Notes: a model not told the origin generated them from the sequence alone. 47,801 nt of DNA from Phycisphaerae bacterium (GCA_029260155.1 JAJDDU010000246.1:1-47801), one strand, 5' to 3'; counted from the stretch's first letter, positions 36,959 to 47,801 are shown. A program made the numbers and translations.

Positions 36959-38431
36959 TCAATCCGCTTGCGGTTCGACACACTCATCCGAAATCGACTC
37001 GGTAACGGTGGCTTCATCGGCTACGTCAGTTGCGGGGCCTGCGTCCGAGACGCCCTCCTCCGCAGCTTTCGCTGAATCGCCGTCGTCGACACTCAGTGCC
37101 GGCGCAGCAGCCACGGTAGCGACCAGTTCTTCGCCTACGTCCGCAGCAGTTTCGGGGGACTGGGACTCGGAGTCGCCGGTCCCACCGTCAGCCTCAACCC
37201 CATTGGCAGTAGCCTCAGCCTCGGCCGCAGCGGCGACCTTCGCGGCTTCTGCCGCCACCGCCCGGGCAAGCTCTGCCTCCTTGGCAAGCCGCTCGATACC
37301 TTCCACAGCGGTTTCGACAACCTTGGCCGCCAGCGTTTCGTCAAGTTCGAGTTCCTTGACCATTGGCTCCGTCCCCACCTCTTTTACATCCATGAGCGAC
37401 ACGATTCCCAGCGCGAGAATCTTGTCTAAGAGTACGTCCTCGACCCCCTCGACAACCTTCAAGGTCGTCTGCAGATCATCGAGGCCCTTGTTGTACTCCT
37501 CCGGGGTGAGAATATCGATGTCCCACCCAGTCAGACGCGCCGCAAGACGAACGTTCTGCCCGCGCTTGCCGATCGCTAGCGACAATTGGTCCTCGGAAAC
37601 GACCACCGTCGCTCTGCCAAGCTCGAAACAGAGTGCCACCTCTTGGATCTCGGCTGGCTTAAGTGCGTTACCGATCAGGATCTGCGAGGATTCGTTCCAT
37701 CGAACGATGTCGATCTTCTCGCCGCCCAACTCATCCACGATATTGCGAATTCTGCTCCCACGCACGCCGACGCAGGCTCCGACAGCATCCACCTTCATGT
37801 CGATGCTTGCCACAGCGACTTTCGTGCGATAACCCGCCTCACGGGCCAGCGCACGGATTTCGATGATCCGCTCCGCCACTTCCGGGACTTCCACCTCGAA
37901 CAGCCGTCGGATGTAGTCCGGGTGTGTTCGCGTCAGGACGATGCGCACCTGATACGGCGCCTCCCGGACGTCCAGAATCATTGCGCGGACACGCTCGCCG
38001 GGGTGGTGAGACTCGCCGGGAATCTGCTCGCTTCGAGGCAGATATCCCTCTGATCGCCCGAGATTGACGACGAGGGCGCTGCCTTCTGCGCGGGCGACCG
38101 TACCCGTGACTATCGTCCCGACACGCTCCGAATACTCGTCGAAAATGCTGCTGCGCTCGGCCTCACGAATGCGTTGGATAATCACCTGTTTCGCAGTCTG
38201 GGCCGCGATGCGACCCAGCATTTTCATGTCAATCGGCGCACCGTTCACCGTTGCGGCGATCTCGCCGCTGGCCCGGTCGATTCTGACTTGGACGTCGTCC
38301 TCCTCGCCGTGGGCCTTCCGTGCCGCGGAGATCATCGCGGACTCGATGTCCTGGTAGACCAATTCCTTATCGATGTTCTTGTCGCGACTGATCGAATCGA
38401 CCAAGCGAAGTAAATCTGCGTTGTTTATCAT
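36959..38431 (-). CDS. nusA: transcription termination/antitermination factor NusA
   Basis: ATG 38431 (MINNADLLRLVDSISRDKNIDKE), followed by S1 and two KH domains. The acidic Ala-rich C-terminal extension is noted. Confidence 0.93.
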   Translation of the reverse strand: MINNADLLRLVDSISRDKNIDKELVYQDIESAMISAARKAHGEEDDVQVRIDRASGEIAATVNGAPIDMKMLGRIAAQTAKQVIIQRIREAERSSIFDEYSERVGTIVTGTVARAEGSALVVNLGRSEGYLPRSEQIPGESHHPGERVRAMILDVREAPYQVRIVLTRTHPDYIRRLFEVEVPEVAERIIEIRALAREAGYRTKVAVASIDMKVDAVGACVGVRGSRIRNIVDELGGEKIDIVRWNESSQILIGNALKPAEIQEVALCFELGRATVVVSEDQLSLAIGKRGQNVRLAARLTGWDIDILTPEEYNKGLDDLQTTLKVVEGVEDVLLDKILALGIVSLMDVKEVGTEPMVKELELDETLAAKVVETAVEGIERLAKEAELARAVAAEAAKVAAAAEAEATANGVEADGGTGDSESQSPETAADVGEELVATVAAAPALSVDDGDSAKAAEEGVSDAGPATDVADEATVTESISDECVEPQAD

Positions 38432-38514
38432 GCGTCGGGCGTTCCTTACGCCTCGTGCGGTAAGCCGGCGACCGCACACGCCTGGTTCAAGTGGCTCGAC
38501 CCACCATCAAACAA

Positions 38515-38547
38515 AAATGTGGGTGCGCACAAAGCAATCCCACATTT
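38515..38547 (-). terminator. intrinsic terminator-like hairpin between the ABC ATPase gene and nusA
   Basis: On the minus strand: AAATGTGGG-(15-nt loop with an inner tgc/gca pairing)-CCCACATTT followed directly by TTGTTTG. Together with the last stem bases this reads CCCACATTTTTGTTTG. Confidence 0.55.
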
Positions 38548-38655
38548 GCAGCCAATACCGGTCTAATAGCAGGAACGTCCGTGTCTTAGCGCATTACACG
38601 CCTCCGACGCTGCTGCCTACCGGAACCAATGCCCGCGACCCCACAACCATGCCTG

Positions 38656-39807
38656 TCAGGTGTCGCGTGCATCGACTTCGTAACTCTCCAACGCGATGTT
38701 CGCTCCGTCTTCACCCGGCTCGAACAACGCGGCCTGCTCAAGATCAACCGCCGCCCACACGTCCCGTTCGGCCAATTCGCCGAACGCCGCGGACATCTTG
38801 GCGACAACCTCCTGGCCGTCCGACGCGTGAGCGTACACATTTCGGTGATCGCCCAGCGTCTCCGACATCAGCACTCGCGCCGGAAAGGACGCTTCCGCGT
38901 CAACCCCGCACGCAACGCTCTTCATCTCCACTCGGTCCGGACGAATGCCAAGCACCATCCGCTCCCCGGTTCGGTTCGCGGCCCGCGCCGCCAAGCGCGA
39001 TGGAAGCGACAACCGTCGCCCCGCGAACTCAAAACCGACCGAATCGCCCGCCCCGACCAACGCCCCATTCAGGAAGTTCATCCGAGGCGTGCCGAGAAAC
39101 CCCGCCACGAACCGATTGGCCGGACGCTCAAAGACCTCTTCGGGAGGCCCTATCTGCTGCACGCGCCCATCGGCCATGACCGCAACGCGGTCGCCCAAGG
39201 CCATCGCCTCGTGCTGATCATGCGTCACGTACAGCGACGTCATTCCCAGGTCGCGCTGCATGCGGCGCAGCTCCAGACGGACTTTAACGCGAAGCTGCGC
39301 GTCAAGGCTCGCAAGCGGTTCGTCGAAAAGGAACACCTGCGGCCGACGCACAATCGCTCGACCAAACGCAACGCGCTGACGCTGCCCGCCGGACAGCTCA
39401 TGCGGCTTACGTTGCTGCAGCTCCTCGATACCCAGCAGCCGCGCGACCTCGGCCACACGCTGCGAAATCTCAGGTTTCGGTGTCCGACGCATCTTCAGGC
39501 CGAACGCCAAATTGCCATACACCGTCAAATGCGGGTACAGCGCGTAATCCTGGAAAACCAGGGCGACGTCGCGATCTTTCGGTGCGACAGCGTCGACTAC
39601 ACAGCCGCCGATCTCGACATGCCCAGCCGTAACGCGATCCAGGCCAGCAACAAGCCGCAGAGTCGTCGTCTTGCCGCATCCCGACGGGCCGACCAGGACG
39701 ACCATTTCGCCATCTGCCACCCTAATCGTCAGGTCATCGACGGCAACAACGGTGTTCCGCCTGCCGCCAAACACCTTTGTGACGTTTCTGAGGGCCACAC
39801 TGGCCAT
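38656..39807 (-). CDS. MalK/UgpC-type sugar ABC transporter ATP-binding protein (orphan)
   Basis: Walker A GPSGCGKTT, signature LSGGQRQR, Walker B VFLFDEPL and a C-terminal TOBE-like regulatory domain. ATG 39807 gives MASVALRNVTK. Confidence 0.9.
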   Translation of the reverse strand: MASVALRNVTKVFGGRRNTVVAVDDLTIRVADGEMVVLVGPSGCGKTTTLRLVAGLDRVTAGHVEIGGCVVDAVAPKDRDVALVFQDYALYPHLTVYGNLAFGLKMRRTPKPEISQRVAEVARLLGIEELQQRKPHELSGGQRQRVAFGRAIVRRPQVFLFDEPLASLDAQLRVKVRLELRRMQRDLGMTSLYVTHDQHEAMALGDRVAVMADGRVQQIGPPEEVFERPANRFVAGFLGTPRMNFLNGALVGAGDSVGFEFAGRRLSLPSRLAARAANRTGERMVLGIRPDRVEMKSVACGVDAEASFPARVLMSETLGDHRNVYAHASDGQEVVAKMSAAFGELAERDVWAAVDLEQAALFEPGEDGANIALESYEVDARDT

Positions 39808-40094
39808 GGCAGCGCACACTCCCTATGCCCAGCCGCACCAGATGCTGCGCGCCGATCACACAAATGCGAACCGCGATTATAAGCACGCCCGCGGGCCTGT
39901 CAAATCTTCCAAACTCACCATCCAGAATCGCAACGCACACCATTCGGGGTGGCATGCCCACGCTTGCGGCGGCATGATTCGACCCGGCGTCAAGATAGGC
40001 ACCCGGCTTGTCTACCACACCGGACACGCCTATCCTCGCCGTTTTGGCGGCGATCGGTTTTCTGCGCCCGGCGCGCCGCTCGGAGCGACGTCCA

Positions 40095-41393
40095 ATGTGC
40101 CGAATAGCACAAATCGTCACAATCTGCGGCCTGCTCGCGTCCGCTACGGTCGCATCCGACGACAACGCATTGCCGGCGGCACTCCAAGCGTACTTCGAGA
40201 CCACCGACCAAGCCGAAAAGCAGGCCCTGATCGCAAAAGCCCGGATCGCGAGCGATGGATCGGTCGCAGCCGTCGCCGACACCCTTCCAAATCTTGCCTT
40301 GTGGCCGTCTTTCGAGGGATCGAGCGATCAACTCACCGTAGACAACGGCGGAGGCATCCAAACCGAAATCGTCGTGACGCTCCCGCGAGGGTACGACGCG
40401 ACCCGCGCGTACCCACTTCTGGTCGCTCTCTGCGACAGGGATGACAGGGTCTGGTCCGACTCGCTCCCATTGGACATCGTGGTCGCGCGGATCGCGAACG
40501 CAGATCACGCAGGCTTCGACGGTCCACAGCCATTCGCTGACGAACCTCGAAAGTGGCTTCGAGCGTTGCGGCGTCGGTATCACCTCGACACGGACCGCAT
40601 CTATCTCTACGGCCACGGCGCGGGCGCTGACGTAGCCTTCGCGATCGCCGTGATGCACAGCGACGCCTTCGCCGGCGTCATCATCCACGAGGGGACCCTG
40701 CTCGTCCCCCACTGGCGTGAACTACATCCCCTCCTGCTCGCCAATCTGAGCAGCACCCCGCTTCACTTGGCATGGACCCGCCCCGATCTGCCTCCCAACA
40801 CCGTGCTGAGAGGCCGGGCGGTCCGACTGGCGTTGATGAATCAGTGGATCGCCCAGATAGCCGAGCGTGAATCGCTGCCGATCACCACGAGCGTGGTGCG
40901 CGAATCAACTACGGCGTCACCGGAGGTCTGGCATCACATCCTGCAATCACCGCGCATGCGGGTCACGGCTGAGCCGCGCCGATTCAGGTATCCCGCGCAG
41001 AGTCAAACGAGGCTCCTCAACGTCCGCCGATTCTCCGGGTCGGTATGGGAAGGCGATCAGCTCGACATCCTCACTCAGCCCGTCACTGATCGGCGCGAAT
41101 ACACCACGAGTGTGCTCGAAGCGAAGCTGCATGATCTCTCCGTCCGCATCGACGGACAGACCATCGACGTTCAGTGCCCGCATTGCGAGTCCATCGAGAT
41201 TCAACTCAGTTTCGGCGACGTGGATTTCTCAAAACGCGTTCTGATTCGATTCGACGGCAAGCGCCGATTCTCCGGCCGACTCACACCAAGCATTGAAACG
41301 CTCCTCCAGTCAGCAGAAGCGTCGTGGGATTTCCAACACAGCGCTTGCGTGCGGCTACGCATCGGCAGAAAAGGCAGCGTGCGACCGTTCTAA
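40095..41393 (+). CDS. secreted alpha/beta-hydrolase-fold-like protein, nucleophile position apparently Gly
   Basis: Signal peptide MCRIAQIVTICGLLASATVA. The esterase-like core is LPRGYDATRAYPLLVAL...RIYLYGHGAGADVAFAIA, where the G-x-S-x-G elbow reads G-H-G-A-G. Confidence 0.5.
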   Translation: MCRIAQIVTICGLLASATVASDDNALPAALQAYFETTDQAEKQALIAKARIASDGSVAAVADTLPNLALWPSFEGSSDQLTVDNGGGIQTEIVVTLPRGYDATRAYPLLVALCDRDDRVWSDSLPLDIVVARIANADHAGFDGPQPFADEPRKWLRALRRRYHLDTDRIYLYGHGAGADVAFAIAVMHSDAFAGVIIHEGTLLVPHWRELHPLLLANLSSTPLHLAWTRPDLPPNTVLRGRAVRLALMNQWIAQIAERESLPITTSVVRESTTASPEVWHHILQSPRMRVTAEPRRFRYPAQSQTRLLNVRRFSGSVWEGDQLDILTQPVTDRREYTTSVLEAKLHDLSVRIDGQTIDVQCPHCESIEIQLSFGDVDFSKRVLIRFDGKRRFSGRLTPSIETLLQSAEASWDFQHSACVRLRIGRKGSVRPF

Positions 41394-41414: not shown

Positions 41415-41825
41415 CTATGGCCCGGTGTACTGTGACTGGAGCGATCCCCAATCGTGGATGTCAACGTCTTCGTCTGTGTCGAAGTCAAAAGTTCCACACC
41501 CAGGCGACACGCCGCCATCGGGCCCGCTGACGCAATCAAGGAAACAGCTGTAATCGGTTAGGTCGACATCGTTGTCATCGTCGCAGTCGCCGGGCGTTGT
41601 GACCGACGGCGCGACTGGATGCAAGCAGTAGATCACCCCAAAATGCACTTGTACGCCGCTCGCCTCCGCCGAACCGATAATGATCTGCCCCGCATTGAAC
41701 ACGGCGCCGGCATTTGTGGAAGCGGCCCCTCCGGAGACAGAGGGGCACATGACATCGCCGCGTGACACGGTACATATCGCCAGAGTGACAAAGACAGGCA
41801 ATAACAACCTGGATGACGCATTCAT
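41415..41825 (-). CDS. small secreted protein with a C-terminal dockerin-like acidic repeat pair
   Basis: Signal peptide MNASSRLLLPVFVTLAICTV and a GGGAG RBS. The C-terminus has GDCDDDNDVDLTDYSCFLDCVSG and FDFDTDEDVDIHDWGSLQ. Confidence 0.55.
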   Translation of the reverse strand: MNASSRLLLPVFVTLAICTVSRGDVMCPSVSGGAASTNAGAVFNAGQIIIGSAEASGVQVHFGVIYCLHPVAPSVTTPGDCDDDNDVDLTDYSCFLDCVSGPDGGVSPGCGTFDFDTDEDVDIHDWGSLQSQYTGP

Positions 41826-41890
41826 TTCATTCTACTCCCAGCGGAGTCCATCCGTGTATTCCAAACCCATTTGCAGTTCATATGCGACTT

Positions 41891-43207
41891 TCATTTGATG
41901 ATGGCCGCGCCCGTGTTGGCGAGGTATAGACCCGGATTGGATAGAGTGACCACGCCCGGTTCGTCGTACGTTGTGCTACGCAAATGAAACACACTGTCGT
42001 CCGGCGCGCCGTCGTGCGCAGCCTGCACGCTCTCGTACGGTGACGCGCACGTTCCGACCTGAGCGCCTGTCTGTACGCCGAGATAGACGTTTTGTCCGCC
42101 GATGCAGTTTTCAGTGGACAAAACTGGATCGTCAGCGCAACCGCCCATCAGCATGAGATCCTCCTTCATGTGCGTAAACTCGTCAGAAGTGATGCATGAG
42201 ATGACTTCGGGCGACGTGTGTTCGGCGCTTTCCAGTGGCGGCGGTGGATCGGAGATGTTCGCCCACTCGTCGTAGTCGATCAGCCAGGATGTGTTCCCGG
42301 TCGAACCGCACCATCCTGCGTTGTTGCCGTTAATGTCCTGCTGCACGTTGACCTGGCTGATGCCATCGCAGTTCCAGTCCACGCTGTTCATCTGCGTGCC
42401 GAACGGCTCGCTGAGACCGAGTTCGTTCAAACTGCACATACGACCGTGCGAGAAGTCCATTTCCTTGAAGAGTGCGTCTTCGGTCGCCAGTCCGAGACAG
42501 AGCATAGTCGTGCGCAGGCCGAACAACTGGTACCGATAGCTCATGATGCTCGGGAGATTGGGGGAATACGGTCCTACCCAAGTTGGGCCGTTGTTAGTAG
42601 GGGGGCAGCTCATCGTTCCGCAATGCGACAGCCCGAGATTATGACCAAACTCATGCGCGAGCGTCGCGGCCTGCTGGAACTCCGTGCCAGTGTTGCTGTC
42701 GAAGTTGCCCAGCGAAACGAGTAGGTTCCAACCAGAGACCTCAGCAATCCCACTGCTGCCGCTCGTGAAGCAGTTGCTGCACGGGTTTGGGTTACCGTCG
42801 CAGGACTCGTACTGGTGACCGAAGACGCAGTAGTGCCAACCGTTGGCCGGCGACTTATTGCGGTAGGTGTCCCTAATTGCACCGAAACTGGCGTTCTGCC
42901 CTTCGTAGTCGAAGAACGTCGTGCAATTGCTCGGATCACGCCGCAGGGTCGAGTAGTGAGGAAGCACGTCGTCTGCGGTATTCTTGTTCAGGATTAGAGT
43001 GTGCCCCTGGCAGGCGAACATCTGAACCACAGCGTCCAGGACGGCGTCGCTGGGTTCGTGCGAGTGGTTCGCCCCGACCATGTAATCGATTTCGATCTTG
43101 AACGTGTCCGCCAGCACCGGAGGTTGAGCAGACATTGTAAATGCCACAGTTGCGATTGCTGCGGTGGTCCAGAGTCGGGCGAAGATGCAATTTGGATCCG
43201 TATTCAT
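41891..43207 (-). CDS. secreted zinc metalloprotease, metzincin type
   Basis: HEFGHNLGLSH (HExxHxxGxxH) with a downstream Met-turn candidate PSIMSY. Signal peptide ...AAIATVAFTMSAQPPVLA. The protein is Cys-rich. A GGGAGAA RBS is present. Confidence 0.75.
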   Translation of the reverse strand: MNTDPNCIFARLWTTAAIATVAFTMSAQPPVLADTFKIEIDYMVGANHSHEPSDAVLDAVVQMFACQGHTLILNKNTADDVLPHYSTLRRDPSNCTTFFDYEGQNASFGAIRDTYRNKSPANGWHYCVFGHQYESCDGNPNPCSNCFTSGSSGIAEVSGWNLLVSLGNFDSNTGTEFQQAATLAHEFGHNLGLSHCGTMSCPPTNNGPTWVGPYSPNLPSIMSYRYQLFGLRTTMLCLGLATEDALFKEMDFSHGRMCSLNELGLSEPFGTQMNSVDWNCDGISQVNVQQDINGNNAGWCGSTGNTSWLIDYDEWANISDPPPPLESAEHTSPEVISCITSDEFTHMKEDLMLMGGCADDPVLSTENCIGGQNVYLGVQTGAQVGTCASPYESVQAAHDGAPDDSVFHLRSTTYDEPGVVTLSNPGLYLANTGAAIIK

Positions 43208-43230
43208 TTCAATTCTCCCGAGAAGAACGC

Positions 43231-45729
43231 TTACTGCAGGTTTACCAGCACAAGTACGAGCCCGGTTTGACCGGCATTCAACCCGGTCATTGCCTTGCCG
43301 ATCACGGCGCCCGCGCTACGCGAGTGGTCGGAAACCCTCATTGCATGGCCCGCGAGCGAAGAGGTGGTCAACAGGTCGCCCGGCTCAATGGCATGGCCTC
43401 TCGCTTCGGCGTAGCAGTAGACGCGGCCGCTCAATGCCACCGGATGACTGCCGTCGGCAAGAGTGCCAGGCTGCCCCATCATCATACCCGTCGACACCCC
43501 TCCCGCGCCGCTGATTACGCCTGCGACCTTGCGATCATATGCGGTCGCACTCGCAACAAGAGCACCGGGGTTGCGTGGATCGATCGATACCACCATGCCC
43601 GGTCGGGGTGATCCCTGTGCTGGGCTGACGTCGAACTTCTCCGAGAAGTCTGATCCCCCCGTGATCTCAAGAACCTTTGTGCTGGTCCAGCCTGTGCGCC
43701 CGTCCAGAACAACGGTGTTCGCGCCGCTGCCGTCCCGCATACGCAGAATGGACCCGGCCCCCACTCCACCGACGTCTGCCACCAGCTCAATCGTGTCGGT
43801 CCCGTCCGACATACTCATCTCAAACAAGCTGCCGCTGCCCGTGCCGGACCGACCGAGGTACACGACCTCGGTCGCGTGGTTATTAAGACGGAGGCTCCCG
43901 CCGTCGGCGCCCGCGGAGAGTGTAGCCGTGATTTCCGCGAGCGAGTTGACCAGCCGCAGCAGGCCCCCGTCGCTGCCGTTGTCGCCCATCAATCGAGCCG
44001 TCGAAGTCCCAGAGTCGTTCTTCACCACGATAATCCCATCACCGCTGGCGTCACCCACGAGGTTGATCGTATTGTCACCGGCGCCGTTGTTAATCCTGAT
44101 CCGACCACCGGAACCCGCGTCGACATTACGAGCTTCCAGAACGATGCGTGGGCTGGTCGCAGTGTTGCCGTCCCTCATCTCCATCCACGACCCAGTATTG
44201 CCAACCCCCTCATAGCTTCCATGGAGCTTGATTCGGCTGCCGCCGTTCCCGATAACCACGACGGAACCTCCGTCGTCGGCACCGCTGCGCTCGGCATCAA
44301 GGATAACCCTCGCATTGCCGCTGTCGGCACTGACTTCCACTCTCCCCGCGCCGTCGCCGTCGTCACCATCAGCGAGGATCCTCACACTGCCCGCGGCGTC
44401 GTACAGCAGAAGCCGACCGCCTGCATCCAATCCGCCACCCAGCTTTGAGGTTCGCTCGCCGTCGGAGGCGAAGGACTCAAACCAACCGTTCCCGCCTTCC
44501 TTGAAGACCTGCGCTAGCACGAAGCTCCCCCAGCCATCGAGAACCTCAAGACCTCTTAGCGCTCGAACGGCCCCTGCCGCTCCATCAGCAAGAAGCGTCT
44601 GGGCGCCAGCCCCGTCGCGAACCGAGATCTCCCCCGCATCGCTGACATCGGCGTTAAAGACGATCGTGTCTGCGGCGTTGCTGTTGCCGAGTTTGACCAA
44701 CGCACCATCCGAGAGATCAGCGTCGATCGACACCGTGGTTGCTCCCTCGCTGTTGTTTAGAGCAAGCACGGCGCCGCCGGTAGTAGGACCCTGGCTGTCG
44801 ACCTGCACCGTAGCGTCGCCGGAATTGTCGTTCATCGTCAGCGTACTGCCGCTGCCTCCGTCGCCAAGCAGCGAAATGCCGAGCGTTCCGCCGGATTGGT
44901 AATACTCCGCAAAACCACCCCCGTTGGCGGCATGCCCGCCGGAAACGACGGCGTTCCCACCACTCGCATCCTCCGTCCGCAGCCGGCCGCCCCCCGCACC
45001 GGCGGTCATGGTTGCACGGACCGCTCCGCCGCCACCCCCAAGCACGTTGAATGCTCCGTCCGCACCGACGATTCCCGCCGATCCGTCGAGCGAGATACGC
45101 GGGCCGCCGGCTGCGGCGCTGTACAACAACAAGAAACCGCTCGCCGGATTCGGAGGACCTGCGCCGAGAGAGATCGCATCATCCAACTCGCCGCTGGCAA
45201 CACGATCGACGCGGTACGCATACGCGACGGCCGTCAGCGGGACGCGCGGAGCGACCTCCACGCCTCCGTTCAAAGAAACACCGATCTCGCGTGCCTCACC
45301 ATTGAACGTACTCACGCTGACAGGAATCTGAACGCTTACGATTCCCCCCTCCATCGACACGCTGTTCATCGTGATCGGTCCCTCGATGACCGCTCCGCCG
45401 GCGTTGTAGATGTTGAAAATGAGCTCCACCGTGTCGCCTGCCAGTGGCTCGCCATCAACGTCGGTCAGCAGTGCCTGGAAGCTAAGCCGTCGTGAATCTT
45501 CGTCCAACAGCGGCAGCGGCGGACCGACGGGGCCAGCCAAGGTCTGAGCCCCGGCGAGCGCCGGATCGGCGGGAACTCCGGAGGGGTTTTCCGCACCAGC
45601 CTGACGTCTTTCGTTGTTGGCCGCTGCCTGCGGCGTCTTCGTGGTATTCTCCGCCCGTGCGCCAACCGAGAATATGCCACTTGCGCCGAGAGCGACGAGC
45701 AATGCGACGCTGTGCAGTTTCCGAATCAT
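43231..45729 (-). CDS. 832-aa secreted fibre-like protein: N-terminal fibre-head module, about 17 Gly-rich solenoid repeats and a distinct C-terminal domain
   Basis: ATG 45729 with a GGAGAA RBS and signal peptide MIRKLHSVALLVALGASGIFSVGARA. The module SFQALLTDVDGEPLAGDTVELIFNIYN....PLTAVAYAYRV resembles the N-terminus of tail-fibre-domain proteins as I remember them. Confidence 0.68.
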   Translation of the reverse strand: MIRKLHSVALLVALGASGIFSVGARAENTTKTPQAAANNERRQAGAENPSGVPADPALAGAQTLAGPVGPPLPLLDEDSRRLSFQALLTDVDGEPLAGDTVELIFNIYNAGGAVIEGPITMNSVSMEGGIVSVQIPVSVSTFNGEAREIGVSLNGGVEVAPRVPLTAVAYAYRVDRVASGELDDAISLGAGPPNPASGFLLLYSAAAGGPRISLDGSAGIVGADGAFNVLGGGGGAVRATMTAGAGGGRLRTEDASGGNAVVSGGHAANGGGFAEYYQSGGTLGISLLGDGGSGSTLTMNDNSGDATVQVDSQGPTTGGAVLALNNSEGATTVSIDADLSDGALVKLGNSNAADTIVFNADVSDAGEISVRDGAGAQTLLADGAAGAVRALRGLEVLDGWGSFVLAQVFKEGGNGWFESFASDGERTSKLGGGLDAGGRLLLYDAAGSVRILADGDDGDGAGRVEVSADSGNARVILDAERSGADDGGSVVVIGNGGSRIKLHGSYEGVGNTGSWMEMRDGNTATSPRIVLEARNVDAGSGGRIRINNGAGDNTINLVGDASGDGIIVVKNDSGTSTARLMGDNGSDGGLLRLVNSLAEITATLSAGADGGSLRLNNHATEVVYLGRSGTGSGSLFEMSMSDGTDTIELVADVGGVGAGSILRMRDGSGANTVVLDGRTGWTSTKVLEITGGSDFSEKFDVSPAQGSPRPGMVVSIDPRNPGALVASATAYDRKVAGVISGAGGVSTGMMMGQPGTLADGSHPVALSGRVYCYAEARGHAIEPGDLLTTSSLAGHAMRVSDHSRSAGAVIGKAMTGLNAGQTGLVLVLVNLQ
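43684..45141 (-). repeat. coding ~23-aa Gly-rich repeats (G-G-x-L-x-L-x-N/D-x-x-G-x-x-T-V-x-L-x-x-D), about 17 copies
   Basis: Examples: GGRIRINNGAGDNTINLVGDASGD / GIIVVKNDSGTSTARLMGDNGSD / GGLLRLVNSLAEITATLSAGAD / GGSLRLNNHATEVVYLGRSGTGS / GSILRMRDGSGANTVVLDGRTGW. Confidence 0.6.
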
Positions 45730-45862
45730 TTTCGATTCTCCGTTCAGGTTCTTGTGTATGCGGCGAGTTGGTCGCAGCAGCAAGCTTCGTCCGCCCTATT
45801 GAGAGAGACGCACGCAAACTTTGGCGGCGCGCGGAACCCAATAATCTGCGGCGAGGGTCGAG

Positions 45863-46348
45863 TCAGCGAGGTGAATCAGGCGTGAGGGCGGCTTGGCTGA
45901 GCAAATCCGACCACTTGCCGGGTGCAACGGACGCTAGATCCAGGAGAACTGGATTGAGCTCGTCACGCCTCCGACTACAGATGAGGTTCCGGTGATGAAC
46001 CATTGCCGCCGCAATCGCAAGGAAATAGCTGGCCAGGGCGTTGAGCCTCGTTTCGCGGTCGCGGCTCCGCTTGATCACGGATTTACCTTCCTCCTTCATC
46101 CGCTTGAGCTGATCCAGTGTAGCGCTACCGCGGATGAGGGCATTCTCCGGATCCTCGAACATGGATGCGGTCCCCGTGCTCAGGGCGGAGTCGAGCCAGT
46201 GGTGTCCGTCGAGTTGACTCAACCGGTCGATGAGTGCGTCGACGGGACGTCTCGGTCCGCAAAGCCCAATCTGGAAGAGGCGCGAGGCGTCAAGTTCGCT
46301 CAAGTTAGCGAATTCGCTGTCTTGTCGTGCGGAGGACTTGAAGTTCAT
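45863..46348 (-). CDS. 161-aa hypothetical protein translationally coupled to the ECF sigma factor
   Basis: ATG 46348 overlaps the sigma-factor TGA as ATGA (46345-46348). No signal peptide and no convincing TM helix. I recognise no family. Confidence 0.5.
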   Translation of the reverse strand: MNFKSSARQDSEFANLSELDASRLFQIGLCGPRRPVDALIDRLSQLDGHHWLDSALSTGTASMFEDPENALIRGSATLDQLKRMKEEGKSVIKRSRDRETRLNALASYFLAIAAAMVHHRNLICSRRRDELNPVLLDLASVAPGKWSDLLSQAALTPDSPR

Positions 46349-47037
46349 GCCCCGGAGACCTCCAACAAAGTCTGGATTTCGTTGTCAACGTGGTCCGGCG
46401 CTGCGCCGTCGCGCACGAGCAGGTCACGCAAGACCTCGCGGAACTTCCGCGCCGCGGTCCGAGCCATGACCGCCGCACGGGGAGCGTCCACGCCAAACTC
46501 CTTCGAAATCTGCTGATACCCCGCGGATTGGTAGTGATGCCGGACAAAGACTCGCCAATGATGTTCCAAACCCTGCACGGCGCACCGTTCATGCGTTTGC
46601 TGAAGTGCCTTCCTGACGATGGAGACGACAAACGCGCGGTCCAGCATCTCCTCGGGCGTCGCGCTGCTATCAGCCTGTTCGTCGGTCGGACCCGGTTCGA
46701 CCCGGTTTCGCTTTCCGGTGCGTTTGACCTCGTTCAGATAGAAGCAGAAGGCGTTCATGAGCCATCGTCGCAGCGGCAAACCGCTTTGCAGCCAATCGGC
46801 GAAGAAGTGCTCCCGAGCCAGACGATCAGCGAAGAATCCCTGCACGATCTCGTCCGGTTCGCCCAGCCACCGGTCGCGCGTTCCGCGGAAGTAGACTGTC
46901 AGCGGCCAAGCGTAGACGCTCATCACGTGCTGGTTAACCTCGCCACGGCCTTCCCCCGCAGAGCGCAGCCTGTCCCCGATCCAGGTGTGGCATGTTGTTG
47001 GGAACGCATTCGGCCGCATGGGGCGTCCTCTTGCCAT
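46345..47037 (-). CDS. ECF-type sigma-70 family factor of the Ser/Thr-kinase-associated kind
   Basis: Region-2-like segment VYAWPLTVYFRG.....EPDEIVQGFFADRL and region-4 HTH GYQQISKEFGVDAPRAAVMARTAARKFREVL. The start was set at ATG 47037 (MARGRPM...). The 99-aa extension to 47334 would overlap the divergent kinase start. Confidence 0.72.
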   Translation of the reverse strand: MARGRPMRPNAFPTTCHTWIGDRLRSAGEGRGEVNQHVMSVYAWPLTVYFRGTRDRWLGEPDEIVQGFFADRLAREHFFADWLQSGLPLRRWLMNAFCFYLNEVKRTGKRNRVEPGPTDEQADSSATPEEMLDRAFVVSIVRKALQQTHERCAVQGLEHHWRVFVRHHYQSAGYQQISKEFGVDAPRAAVMARTAARKFREVLRDLLVRDGAAPDHVDNEIQTLLEVSGA

Positions 47038-47260
47038 GCCCTCTATTCTGTCCCTTGGAACAGTAGGGAACAAGGAAGTACTGCATTCAATCAATCGCGA
47101 CATTGTGCTGGTATCGCTCGTAAATCCCTCTAATGGTCCGAATAACGGCACCCGCCGCATGAAGAAAGGCACGGAACGGTTTTTGCGGCGCGCTGAGTCC
47201 CCTCGTGGGATCAAGATGTTACAATGGCCTGGGCGTATGGACCGCCCGCAGAGCCAAAAC
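47038..47260. promoter_or_regulatory. divergent intergenic region between the ECF sigma and Ser/Thr kinase genes
   Basis: 223 bp between divergent starts. It contains a tandem GGAAC-N5-GGAAC at about 47054-47068 and a TACAAT hexamer at 47220-47225. No promoter is assigned. Confidence 0.35.
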
Positions 47261-47801
47261 ATGCGATACACTGCGCAGCAAGAGGGATGCCTCGGTGGTT
47301 TTGAGATCATCGGCGAGATCGGCCGAGGTGGCATGGGTATCGTCTATGAGGCGCGGAACATGTCGAGCGACCAGCATGTCGCCCTGAAGGTGCTGGCCGG
47401 TGGAGCCTCAATCACATCGCGGGCAGTGACTCGTTTTCAGCGCGAAGCTGAAGCGGTAGGACAGCTGACACACCCGAACATCGTCCCTATCCATGCGACC
47501 GGCGAAGAGTGCGATAGGCACTTTTACGCGATGGAGCTGATCGACGGCCCATCGCTCGATCGTGTCATTCGCCGGATAAGGTTGGACAACGTAGCCTCTC
47601 TGTCCGATCACAGGAGATCGAGCACCGACGAAGTCGTAGCCGAGACCGCGTCCACCGCGAATTCTGATGGCTCTCTGCCCATGTGGGTGTCGCAGGCGCT
47701 AAGTTGCGACAGCGCCAACGGCATCGCACCGCTACACGAGGCAGCCGTTGCAGCCGCCTGTGAACTCACTATCGGTCCGAAGTATTTCAGGGCCATCGCC
47801 G
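47261..47801 (+). CDS. Ser/Thr protein kinase, 3' end runs off the window
   Basis: Not in the ORF track because no stop is reached; I translated it by hand. The sequence reads MRYTAQQEGCLGGFEIIGEIGRGGMGIVYEARN...HVALKVL...FQREAEAVGQLTHPNIVPIHA...FYAMELIDGPSL. It shows a Gly-rich loop, the VAxK lysine, the alpha-C Glu and the hinge. ATG 47237 is an alternative start. Confidence 0.85.
   Translation, partial: MRYTAQQEGCLGGFEIIGEIGRGGMGIVYEARNMSSDQHVALKVLAGGASITSRAVTRFQREAEAVGQLTHPNIVPIHATGEECDRHFYAMELIDGPSLDRVIRRIRLDNVASLSDHRRSSTDEVVAETASTANSDGSLPMWVSQALSCDSANGIAPLHEAAVAAACELTIGPKYFRAIA

Follow-up and report, generated by a model that had tools for sequence, protein, structure and literature searches.

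In a 47,801-nt stretch of DNA from a Phycisphaerae bacterium (GCA_029260155.1, JAJDDU010000246.1:1-47801), which is a whole contig of a metagenome-assembled genome (MAG) and is referred to here as the window, the genes read at 41415-47801 encode a putative sigma factor of the extracytoplasmic function (ECF) type, a coupled 161-aa protein, a divergent Hanks-type Ser/Thr kinase and, following on the sigma strand, a secreted fibre-like protein, a metzincin and a small dockerin-like protein. As judged from the DNA, this sigma factor very probably drives the fibre-metzincin-small-protein operon, because the sigma and fibre operons share a conserved motif that is rare elsewhere. The overall picture, in which a kinase-linked sigma/partner module controls a surface-fibre operon, is on balance favoured, and so, to the same modest degree, is the view that it forms a signalling module of three layers that is confined to one Phycisphaerae clade. 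For this locus and its relatives, the order of the genes and how well it is conserved, the motif with its specificity, and the domains of the proteins were computed. The six open reading frames (ORFs) of the first-pass annotation, which had proposed that the kinase gates the sigma factor and that the sigma factor drives the fibre genes, are all present, with the spacing that it had given them (Table 1).

De novo motif finding upstream of the sigma genes recovered this motif in 48 of the 80 loci of the sigma-locus sample (one genome per species, nearly all Phycisphaerales MAGs), and its spacing is identical in 33 of these 48. It is bipartite, consisting of (C/A)GCGCGCC(G), 13 nt and nnGTCT(c/t)TCT, and is written here in short as GCGCGCC-N17-TCTnTCT; the second, -10-like box often contains CGTC. 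When both strands of the 47.8-kb window are scanned, exactly two matches of at least 16 bits are obtained, at 47194-47163 and at 45833-45802, with about 0.07 matches of at least 20 bits expected by chance. The first site, of the sigma operon, lies 175 nt before the sigma ATG and scores 23.6 bits with the position weight matrix (PWM) of the family and 21.8 bits with a leave-clade-out PWM, which was trained only outside the clade of the window. The second site, of the fibre operon, was never part of any PWM training set and is the best match of the window, with 24.7 and 25.6 bits, respectively. The background is low: 930 kb of DNA from the sigma loci, taken at distances above 2.5 kb from the sigma gene, contain four matches that reach 20 bits, and 749 kb of unrelated fibre loci contain none. 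We infer that the motif is the promoter of this sigma factor. The fibre, metzincin and small-protein genes would then be transcribed as one unit, because the gaps between them are 23 bp (fibre to metzincin) and 65 bp (metzincin to small ORF) and no terminator is predicted; the scan of the locus predicted neither a sigma-70-type promoter nor a terminator between the operon genes, and it yielded no informative sites.

The motif is also present in relatives of the window. In the closest relative, L171 (sigma 81% identical), both equivalent sites are found, with conserved boxes and diverged spacers. The gene order kinase/sigma/161-aa/fibre/metzincin, whose recurrence in related genomes had been named as a check, is complete in L171 and is only largely kept in L010 and L011. 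Sites precede the fibre genes of L171, L010, L011, L007 and L008 and, in trans, of L087, where the motif lies 64 nt before the fibre gene and where the cassette is on a different contig from the sigma locus of the same MAG (L005/L006). In L007, L008, L010, L011, L014, L039 and L062, the motif follows the partner gene and precedes the next gene on that strand, which encodes a secreted protein, and in L074 a site is located in front of the divergent kinase. The proposal that the sigma factor drives the fibre operon is thereby supported in silico by a shared promoter motif that is repeated in relatives and occurs once in trans. Sites that face divergently from the sigma gene are also seen, pointing toward small membrane proteins of 148-159 aa (L020, 5982 (-); L039, 3202 (-)) and toward a 511-aa secreted protein with a C-terminal dockerin (L064, 2464 (-)). 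The motif was also considered as a general feature of the whole fibre family, and this was rejected, as it is found in 0 of 53 upstream regions.

The sigma homologues comprise more than 200 proteins of about 224 aa, with 40-81% identity, and nearly all are from Phycisphaerales. The window sigma has no Pfam match, and its score against TIGR02937 is about 20 bits (20.2; cut-off 42.9). This weak call is rescued because relatives match TIGR02937 and the sigma-70/ECF models: TIGR02937 is matched at E<0.01 by 12 of 25 family members, every other match is to a sigma-70/ECF model, and Sigma70_r4_2 is weakly matched in 6 of the 25. Comparison of the family profile with PDB sequences gives a chance match only, and hhalign of this profile with Escherichia coli RpoE places the proteins in the correct register at a level that is not significant. 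The patch of sigma region 2.2 in the window is acidic (E54-P-D56-E57-I-V-Q), and this is preserved in the family: among 81 sequences, E54 is kept in 100% of the clade and 90% of the other sequences and E57 in 100% of both, and there is no Ser/Thr at these positions. In a neighbour-joining tree of the sigma proteins, the clade of the window (n=11) consists of the window, L006, L010, L011, L007, L008, L009, L062, L014, L047 and L016. A single position has a Ser/Thr that is clade-specific: position 8 of the sigma protein (FPTT; codon 46996-46998) is Ser/Thr in 100% of the kinase-linked clade versus 4% elsewhere, and Thr8 is therefore a possible clade-specific phospho-acceptor, to be regarded as a lead and not as evidence. 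The MAG Co_bin.225 has two paralogous sigma-partner pairs, L012 and L066, whose sigmas are 58% and 46% identical to that of the window; only the L012 pair has an opposite-strand kinase upstream of sigma, about 1.8 kb away. In the most distant sigma branch (L075-L081 and L085; sigma 40-42% identical), the 161-aa partner and the motif are both undetected, and this branch may rely on another partner and another promoter.

The most constant partner of the sigma gene is the 161-aa protein, a homologue of which is encoded directly downstream of sigma in 71 of the 80 loci, compared with 13 of 80 for the kinase; it is absent only from one truncated contig and from L074-L079, L081 and L085 (sigma 40-47% identical). 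The stable unit is therefore formed by sigma and the 161-aa protein rather than by sigma and the kinase, which does not support the earlier suggestion that this sigma factor belongs to a group lacking an anti-sigma partner. The AlphaFold2 model of the partner (predicted local distance difference test, pLDDT, 82.8) is all-helical, with nine helices, and a GPRRPVD motif is invariant across the alignment. No transmembrane helix is predicted, placing the protein in the cytoplasm, and no match is found in Pfam, NCBIfam or PHROGs. Foldseek comparison of the model with the PDB gives no fold match (best E=0.21, TM 0.27). Neither an HxxxCxxC zinc motif nor the helical-bundle fold of the anti-sigma domain (ASD) is present, so that the protein falls outside the class I, II and III anti-sigma factors (ASD, ZAS). 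The partner is considered a candidate for a new type of anti-sigma factor or sigma-binding regulator. For its being inhibitory, the chances are close to even and slightly on the unfavourable side; in ECF systems, co-transcribed partners are inhibitors in 114 of 157 groups (PMC7826278).

The kinase is divergent from the sigma gene in the window, as annotated, and a divergent kinase directly upstream of sigma is found in 13 of the 80 loci and in 9 of the 11 clade members, so that inside the sigma clade of the window the link to the kinase is genuine. In L171, the orthologue is complete, at 854 aa, and comprises a kinase domain, a single transmembrane helix and a tetratricopeptide repeat (TPR)-like C-terminal region. 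Since the clade orthologues have the same composition (Pkinase, one transmembrane helix at about residues 335-400, and TPR), these kinases are regarded as receptor type. That the kinase acts on the sigma/partner pair is proposed tentatively.

This arrangement resembles that of ECF43 (EcfP/PknT of Vibrio parahaemolyticus and EcfK/PknS of Xanthomonas citri), in that an ECF-type sigma is located beside a transmembrane Ser/Thr kinase, and also in its envelope or surface output, which for the known pairs is polymyxin resistance or the type VI secretion system (PMC8999054, PMC13147305) and which is predicted here. In ECF43, ECF59 and ECF60, the acidic DAED patch of sigma region 2.2 is lost and is replaced by an uncharged, phosphorylatable Thr/Ser (PMC8999054, PMC8103513, PMC13147305). 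The first-pass annotation had pointed to ECF43 membership and to a phospho-Thr switch as in EcfP; this does not agree with the sequences, in which positions 54 and 57 are acidic in 90-100%, the comparison with EcfP being with the published motif description and not a sequence alignment. Where ECF43 has QTTA/STTA, the window sigma keeps the acidic patch; it also has a co-translated partner and is missed by the standard sigma-2/sigma-4 models, and most of its family is without a kinase. Two of the three testable features of ECF43, the loss of the acidic patch and the absence of a partner, are thus not found here, and the third, an adjacent Hanks kinase, is present in the window, in L171 and in 9 of the 11 clade members, and in only 13 of the 80 loci of the family. 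A phospho-switch in region 2.2 is an unlikely mechanism, and a different one is argued for because of the new obligatory partner protein. RshA and RseA of Mycobacterium tuberculosis, which are phosphorylated by PknB, are a precedent for how a cytoplasmic sigma partner could be a kinase substrate, releasing sigma (PMC8999054), although neither a ZAS motif nor the anti-sigma-domain fold is seen in the 161-aa protein, which is unlike them in both sequence and fold.

On the favoured reading, the module would work as follows. The receptor kinase, with its cytoplasmic kinase domain, its one transmembrane helix and a periplasmic TPR region, would sense a cue from the envelope or from outside the cell, and would act on the cytoplasmic pair of the divergent ECF-like sigma and its coupled helical 161-aa partner. 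The partner would most likely hold sigma inactive, as an anti-sigma factor of a new type. Sigma would be freed when either the partner or its own N-terminus is phosphorylated, and not by the charge switch in region 2.2 known from ECF43. The free sigma factor would then transcribe from the GCGCGCC-N17-TCTnTCT promoters both its own operon, resulting in autoregulation, and the fibre-metzincin-dockerin-like operon. The fibre would be secreted and is probably trimeric and phage-tail-fibre-like, with the C-terminal domain likely needed for assembly or anchoring, and the metzincin may mature the fibre or ride on it.

Several points weigh against this picture. The protein is only weakly recognisable as a sigma factor, with no Pfam or PDB match and without significance in the RpoE comparison. 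The -35-like box GCGCGCC is without the AAC that is typical of the -35 box of ECF promoters, which are autoregulated and typically have CGT in their -10 box (PMC8103513), and the distant fibre cassettes L088 and L090 are without the motif. There is no adjacent kinase in 67 of the 80 sigma-family loci, for which reason the kinase may be an accessory or an unrelated neighbour. The inhibitory role of the partner is a guess, because the protein resembles no known anti-sigma factor, and the full-length fibre model is of low confidence (pLDDT 52).

Other explanations can be compared with these data. In an EcfP/ECF43-type mechanism, which is established for EcfP and EcfK (PMC8999054, PMC13147305), the sigma factor would be intrinsically inactive and the kinase would phosphorylate a Thr of region 2.2, with no anti-sigma factor involved; the divergent Hanks kinase adjacent to sigma in the window and in most of its clade is in agreement with this. 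The mechanism is nevertheless highly improbable here, as the acidic patch is kept without Ser/Thr at 54 or 57, as a conserved coupled partner is found in 71 of the 80 loci, and as the kinase is absent from 67. More weight, if still a minor one, is given to the 161-aa protein being a positive co-factor, such as a second sigma subunit, a stabiliser or an adaptor for docking to RNA polymerase, with the kinase acting elsewhere. The strict co-occurrence and coupled translation of sigma and partner would fit such a role, as would a sigma factor so divergent that it may need help and a partner unlike the known anti-sigma folds, and two-subunit sigmas do exist (SigO-RsoA; PMC7826278). On the other hand, no DNA-binding or sigma-like domain is detected in the 161-aa protein, and the frequency of inhibitors among co-transcribed ECF partners given above (PMC7826278) also disfavours this role.

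It could also be that the adjacency of the sigma and fibre genes is without regulatory meaning, the cassette being autonomous and possibly mobile or phage-derived, and the motif being, for example, the operator of another regulator. This is in line with the cassettes that have no neighbouring sigma (L087, L088/L089 and L090), with the wider-family metagenome loci, 0 of 80 of which carry this sigma or motif, and with a fibre fold that resembles phage fibre proteins. The motif is, however, directional and bipartite with fixed spacing, and it is very rare other than upstream of sigma (48 of 80); it co-occurs with sigma-adjacent cargo of unrelated types, and it is found at the unlinked cassette L087, whose genome has the sigma. 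Adjacency without regulation is therefore considered improbable, and the kinase-linked sigma/partner module controlling the fibre operon remains the preferred explanation.

The fibre-like protein is composed, according to the alignment and the AlphaFold2 model, of a signal peptide, an N-terminal beta-sandwich (about residues 75-190, conserved, pLDDT 70-85) with a sub-threshold Bdello_MAT_N match, a variable shaft of Gly-rich beta-hairpin repeats, and a conserved C-terminal domain (pLDDT 73-89). Structure matches of the full-length model in the PDB were meaningless and were discarded. In BFVD, 13 matches at E<=1e-3 are obtained, to uncharacterised Caudovirales/phage and tail-fibre proteins; these are local and are used as a hint. 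The layout is similar to that of phage tail fibres and tailspikes and of the chimeric MAT fibres of Bdellovibrio, in which a conserved module at the N-terminus is followed by a repetitive shaft that varies and by a C-terminal domain of high conservation, and the Foldseek matches to phage fibre and tail proteins and the weak Bdello_MAT_N match also point in this direction. In contrast to phage tail fibres, the window fibre is chromosomal, has a Sec signal peptide and is paired with a metzincin, and it has no match to Peptidase_S74 or Peptidase_G2 and no Ser-x5-Lys dyad: GGSDFSEKF of the window fibre corresponds to SDLSEQF in the family consensus. The same searches with 10 other family members also give no Pfam or PHROG match, and neither Peptidase_S74 nor Peptidase_G2.

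The family of full-length fibres is small (11 proteins), and a fibre homologue is found downstream of sigma in 4 of the 80 loci. The C-terminal 163 aa, in contrast, detect 14,460 clusters at 50% identity at E<=1e-3, and 3,847 at E<=1e-30. This domain is 60-70% identical and, without exception, forms the very end of the protein, whose length ranges from 200 to 1,400 aa; it has no Pfam or NCBIfam model and no names, and the few annotated examples are hypothetical proteins of Planctomycetota. A survey of the wider family in 80 metagenome loci (L091-L170) shows that the fibre gene has an ORF with a metzincin motif (HExxHxxxxx[HD]) downstream of it on its own strand in 26 of 64 loci, versus 2 of 64 on the opposite strand and 1 of 45 upstream. 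None of these 80 metagenome loci has the sigma of the window or its motif (motif in 0 of 53).

The metzincin of the window has the zinc site HEFGHNLGLSH (residues 185-195) and a candidate Met-turn, SIMSY (residues 220-224), and scores 24.1 bits against Pfam Reprolysin_4 (cut-off 22). Its assignment as a metzincin therefore stands, with no assignable subfamily; the best matches among PDB sequences are snake-venom and ADAM metalloproteases. In the close fibre family, a protease with HExxHxxxxxH follows the fibre gene in every locus, with subfamilies that differ (astacin, reprolysin-like and an unassigned HE[ILV]GH[YF]FDLCH type). Synteny of the metzincin gene with sigma in many genomes was considered and, at the level of sequence, was rejected, since tblastn gives no match in the 80 sigma loci. 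The dockerin-like repeats proposed for the small protein are below threshold in the window protein itself (Dockerin_1, PF00404: 13.7 bits, cut-off 22.9) and are rescued by homologous domains, which score 22.7 (L011), 23.2 (L064) and 24.2 bits (L148). Such domains form the C-terminus of the 444/464-aa proteins of L010/L011 and are also found in L087 (168 aa) and L088 (145 aa). A protein with this domain usually follows the fibre-protease pair, and no cohesin partner was identified for the dockerin-like protein.

The fibre-metzincin-dockerin-like cassette is an autonomous unit. It lies beside sigma and its partner in the window, L171, L010 and L011, and in L007 and L008 a shorter fibre, which shares only the C-terminal domain, takes the cassette position. 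In L087, L088/L089 and L090 the cassette is away from any neighbouring sigma/kinase pair, and the clade also has other cargo; the module is thus not self-contained, contrary to what had been proposed. The alternative cargo after the partner gene consists of a secreted protein of 612-689 aa (GQWIxRxHxLQxGWNA) and, after it, a second secreted protein, which has FG-GAP repeats and is over 2,000 aa long (L014, 11546-20660; L062, 3858-13275; L047, 6568-15942; L009, 5885-13792). In L014, L062 and L047, where the first protein has 669-689 aa, this cargo is preceded by the promoter motif; L009 has a 612-aa version and no motif of at least 16 bits.

ECF283 is another kinase-linked ECF group, beside ECF59-62 and ECF217. 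The planctomycete groups ECF59-62 and ECF217 (PF07638-type) share with the present system the phylum, the sigma-kinase linkage and regulons that are unknown (PMC7826278), and such pairs are also found beside fibre-family genes in the metagenome loci. Six wider-family loci (L091, L104, L119, L134, L148 and L153) have an operon of a canonical ECF sigma (PF07638 or Sigma70_r2) and a Ser/Thr kinase that adjoins the fibre gene, mostly divergently; L097 has only a sigma by the fibre-family gene, L109 has a co-directional kinase, and in L148 a dockerin-domain protein precedes the fibre gene. The adjacency of ECF-kinase pairs to fibre-family genes is estimated to be well above chance, and because these pairs recur there, the general idea that kinase-linked ECF sigmas control such fibres is supported. 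The PF07638-type pairs beside fibre genes have a canonical sigma (E about 1e-50) in a co-directional sigma-then-kinase operon without a 161-aa partner, whereas the window has a divergent kinase, a sigma that Pfam does not detect and the 161-aa partner, a contrast that is drawn by gene order and Pfam.

The features of the locus are collected in Table 1. In-frame ATGs upstream of the kinase start are located at 47159, 47216 and 47237, and the gap between the 161-aa and fibre ORFs is 133 bp. As for the signal peptides of the last three gene products, hydrophobic N-termini are confirmed for the fibre and the small protein, and GGAG-type ribosome-binding sites precede all three genes.

Table 1. Features of the sigma/partner and fibre operons and of the divergent kinase gene in the window
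Feature	Position	Strand	Details
Kinase, N-terminal part	47261..47801	+	180 aa, Hanks-type Ser/Thr, cut by contig end; Pfam Pkinase E=6e-12
Predicted autoregulatory promoter of the sigma/161-aa operon	47163..47194	-	AGCGCGCCG-N13-GTGCCTTTCT
Divergent ECF-like sigma	46345..47019	-	224 aa from database start 47019; alternative start 47037
161-aa partner ORF	45863..46348	-	start overlaps sigma stop (ATGA)
Predicted sigma-dependent promoter of the fibre operon	45802..45833	-	CGCGCGCCG-N13-GCGTCTCTCT; end 73 nt before fibre ATG
Secreted fibre-like protein	43231..45729	-	832 aa
Fibre C-terminal domain	43234..43722	-	residues 670-832; starts ...LEITGGSDFSEKFDV, ends ...LVLVLVNLQ
Secreted metzincin-type zinc protease	41891..43207	-	438 aa; HEFGHNLGLSH encoded at 42623-42655
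Small secreted protein with dockerin-like C-terminal Ca-binding repeat	41415..41825	-	136 aa; repeat at about residues 78-125, encoded at 41451-41594

Outside these operons, a 461-aa ORF at 40008-41393 (+) with a hydrophobic N-terminus, to which no function was assigned, converges on the small-protein gene. None of the 80 sigma loci contains a homologue of this ORF, and the flanking synteny is therefore considered not conserved. The genes at 36959-39819 (-) resemble, when judged by eye, NusA (KH-domain motifs) and a sugar-type ABC transporter ATPase. Rfam and tRNA scans found no RNA families or tRNAs anywhere in the window, and a PHROGs scan of five locus proteins gave no match.

Kinase-associated ECF sigmas are abundant in Planctomycetota, but outside the proteobacterial ECF43 they have, to our knowledge, no described regulon, promoter or mechanism. 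They are already a known kind (PMC7826278), and what is new relative to the known kinase-ECF pairs is a sigma that escapes the models, an obligatory partner with an unmatched fold and the retained acidic patch of region 2.2, together with a -35-like box that is unusual in being GC-rich and the prediction of a regulon for surface fibres. The locus supplies a promoter motif in concrete form, mapped at two places of the window, and a predicted target operon, and it links kinase-ECF signalling to a very large unannotated family of secreted fibres that is often paired with a metzincin. The surface fibres of planctomycetes are molecularly undefined (PMC5394234). A bolder joint proposal, for which the chances seem low, is that the 161-aa protein founds a new class of cytoplasmic anti-sigma factors, coupling a receptor kinase to a sigma factor missed by the ECF classifications, and that the C-terminal domain family marks a kinase/ECF-gated, metzincin-matured surface-fibre system of general occurrence. 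If this were true, the proteins with the C-terminal domain (more than 14,000 clusters, mostly Planctomycetota) would be candidates for the unidentified cell-surface fibres of planctomycetes, and this domain family with its metzincin pairing may be the more far-reaching by-product. If confirmed, the circuit would be the first signal-to-surface circuit in Phycisphaerae and would give a handle on the purpose of these fibres.

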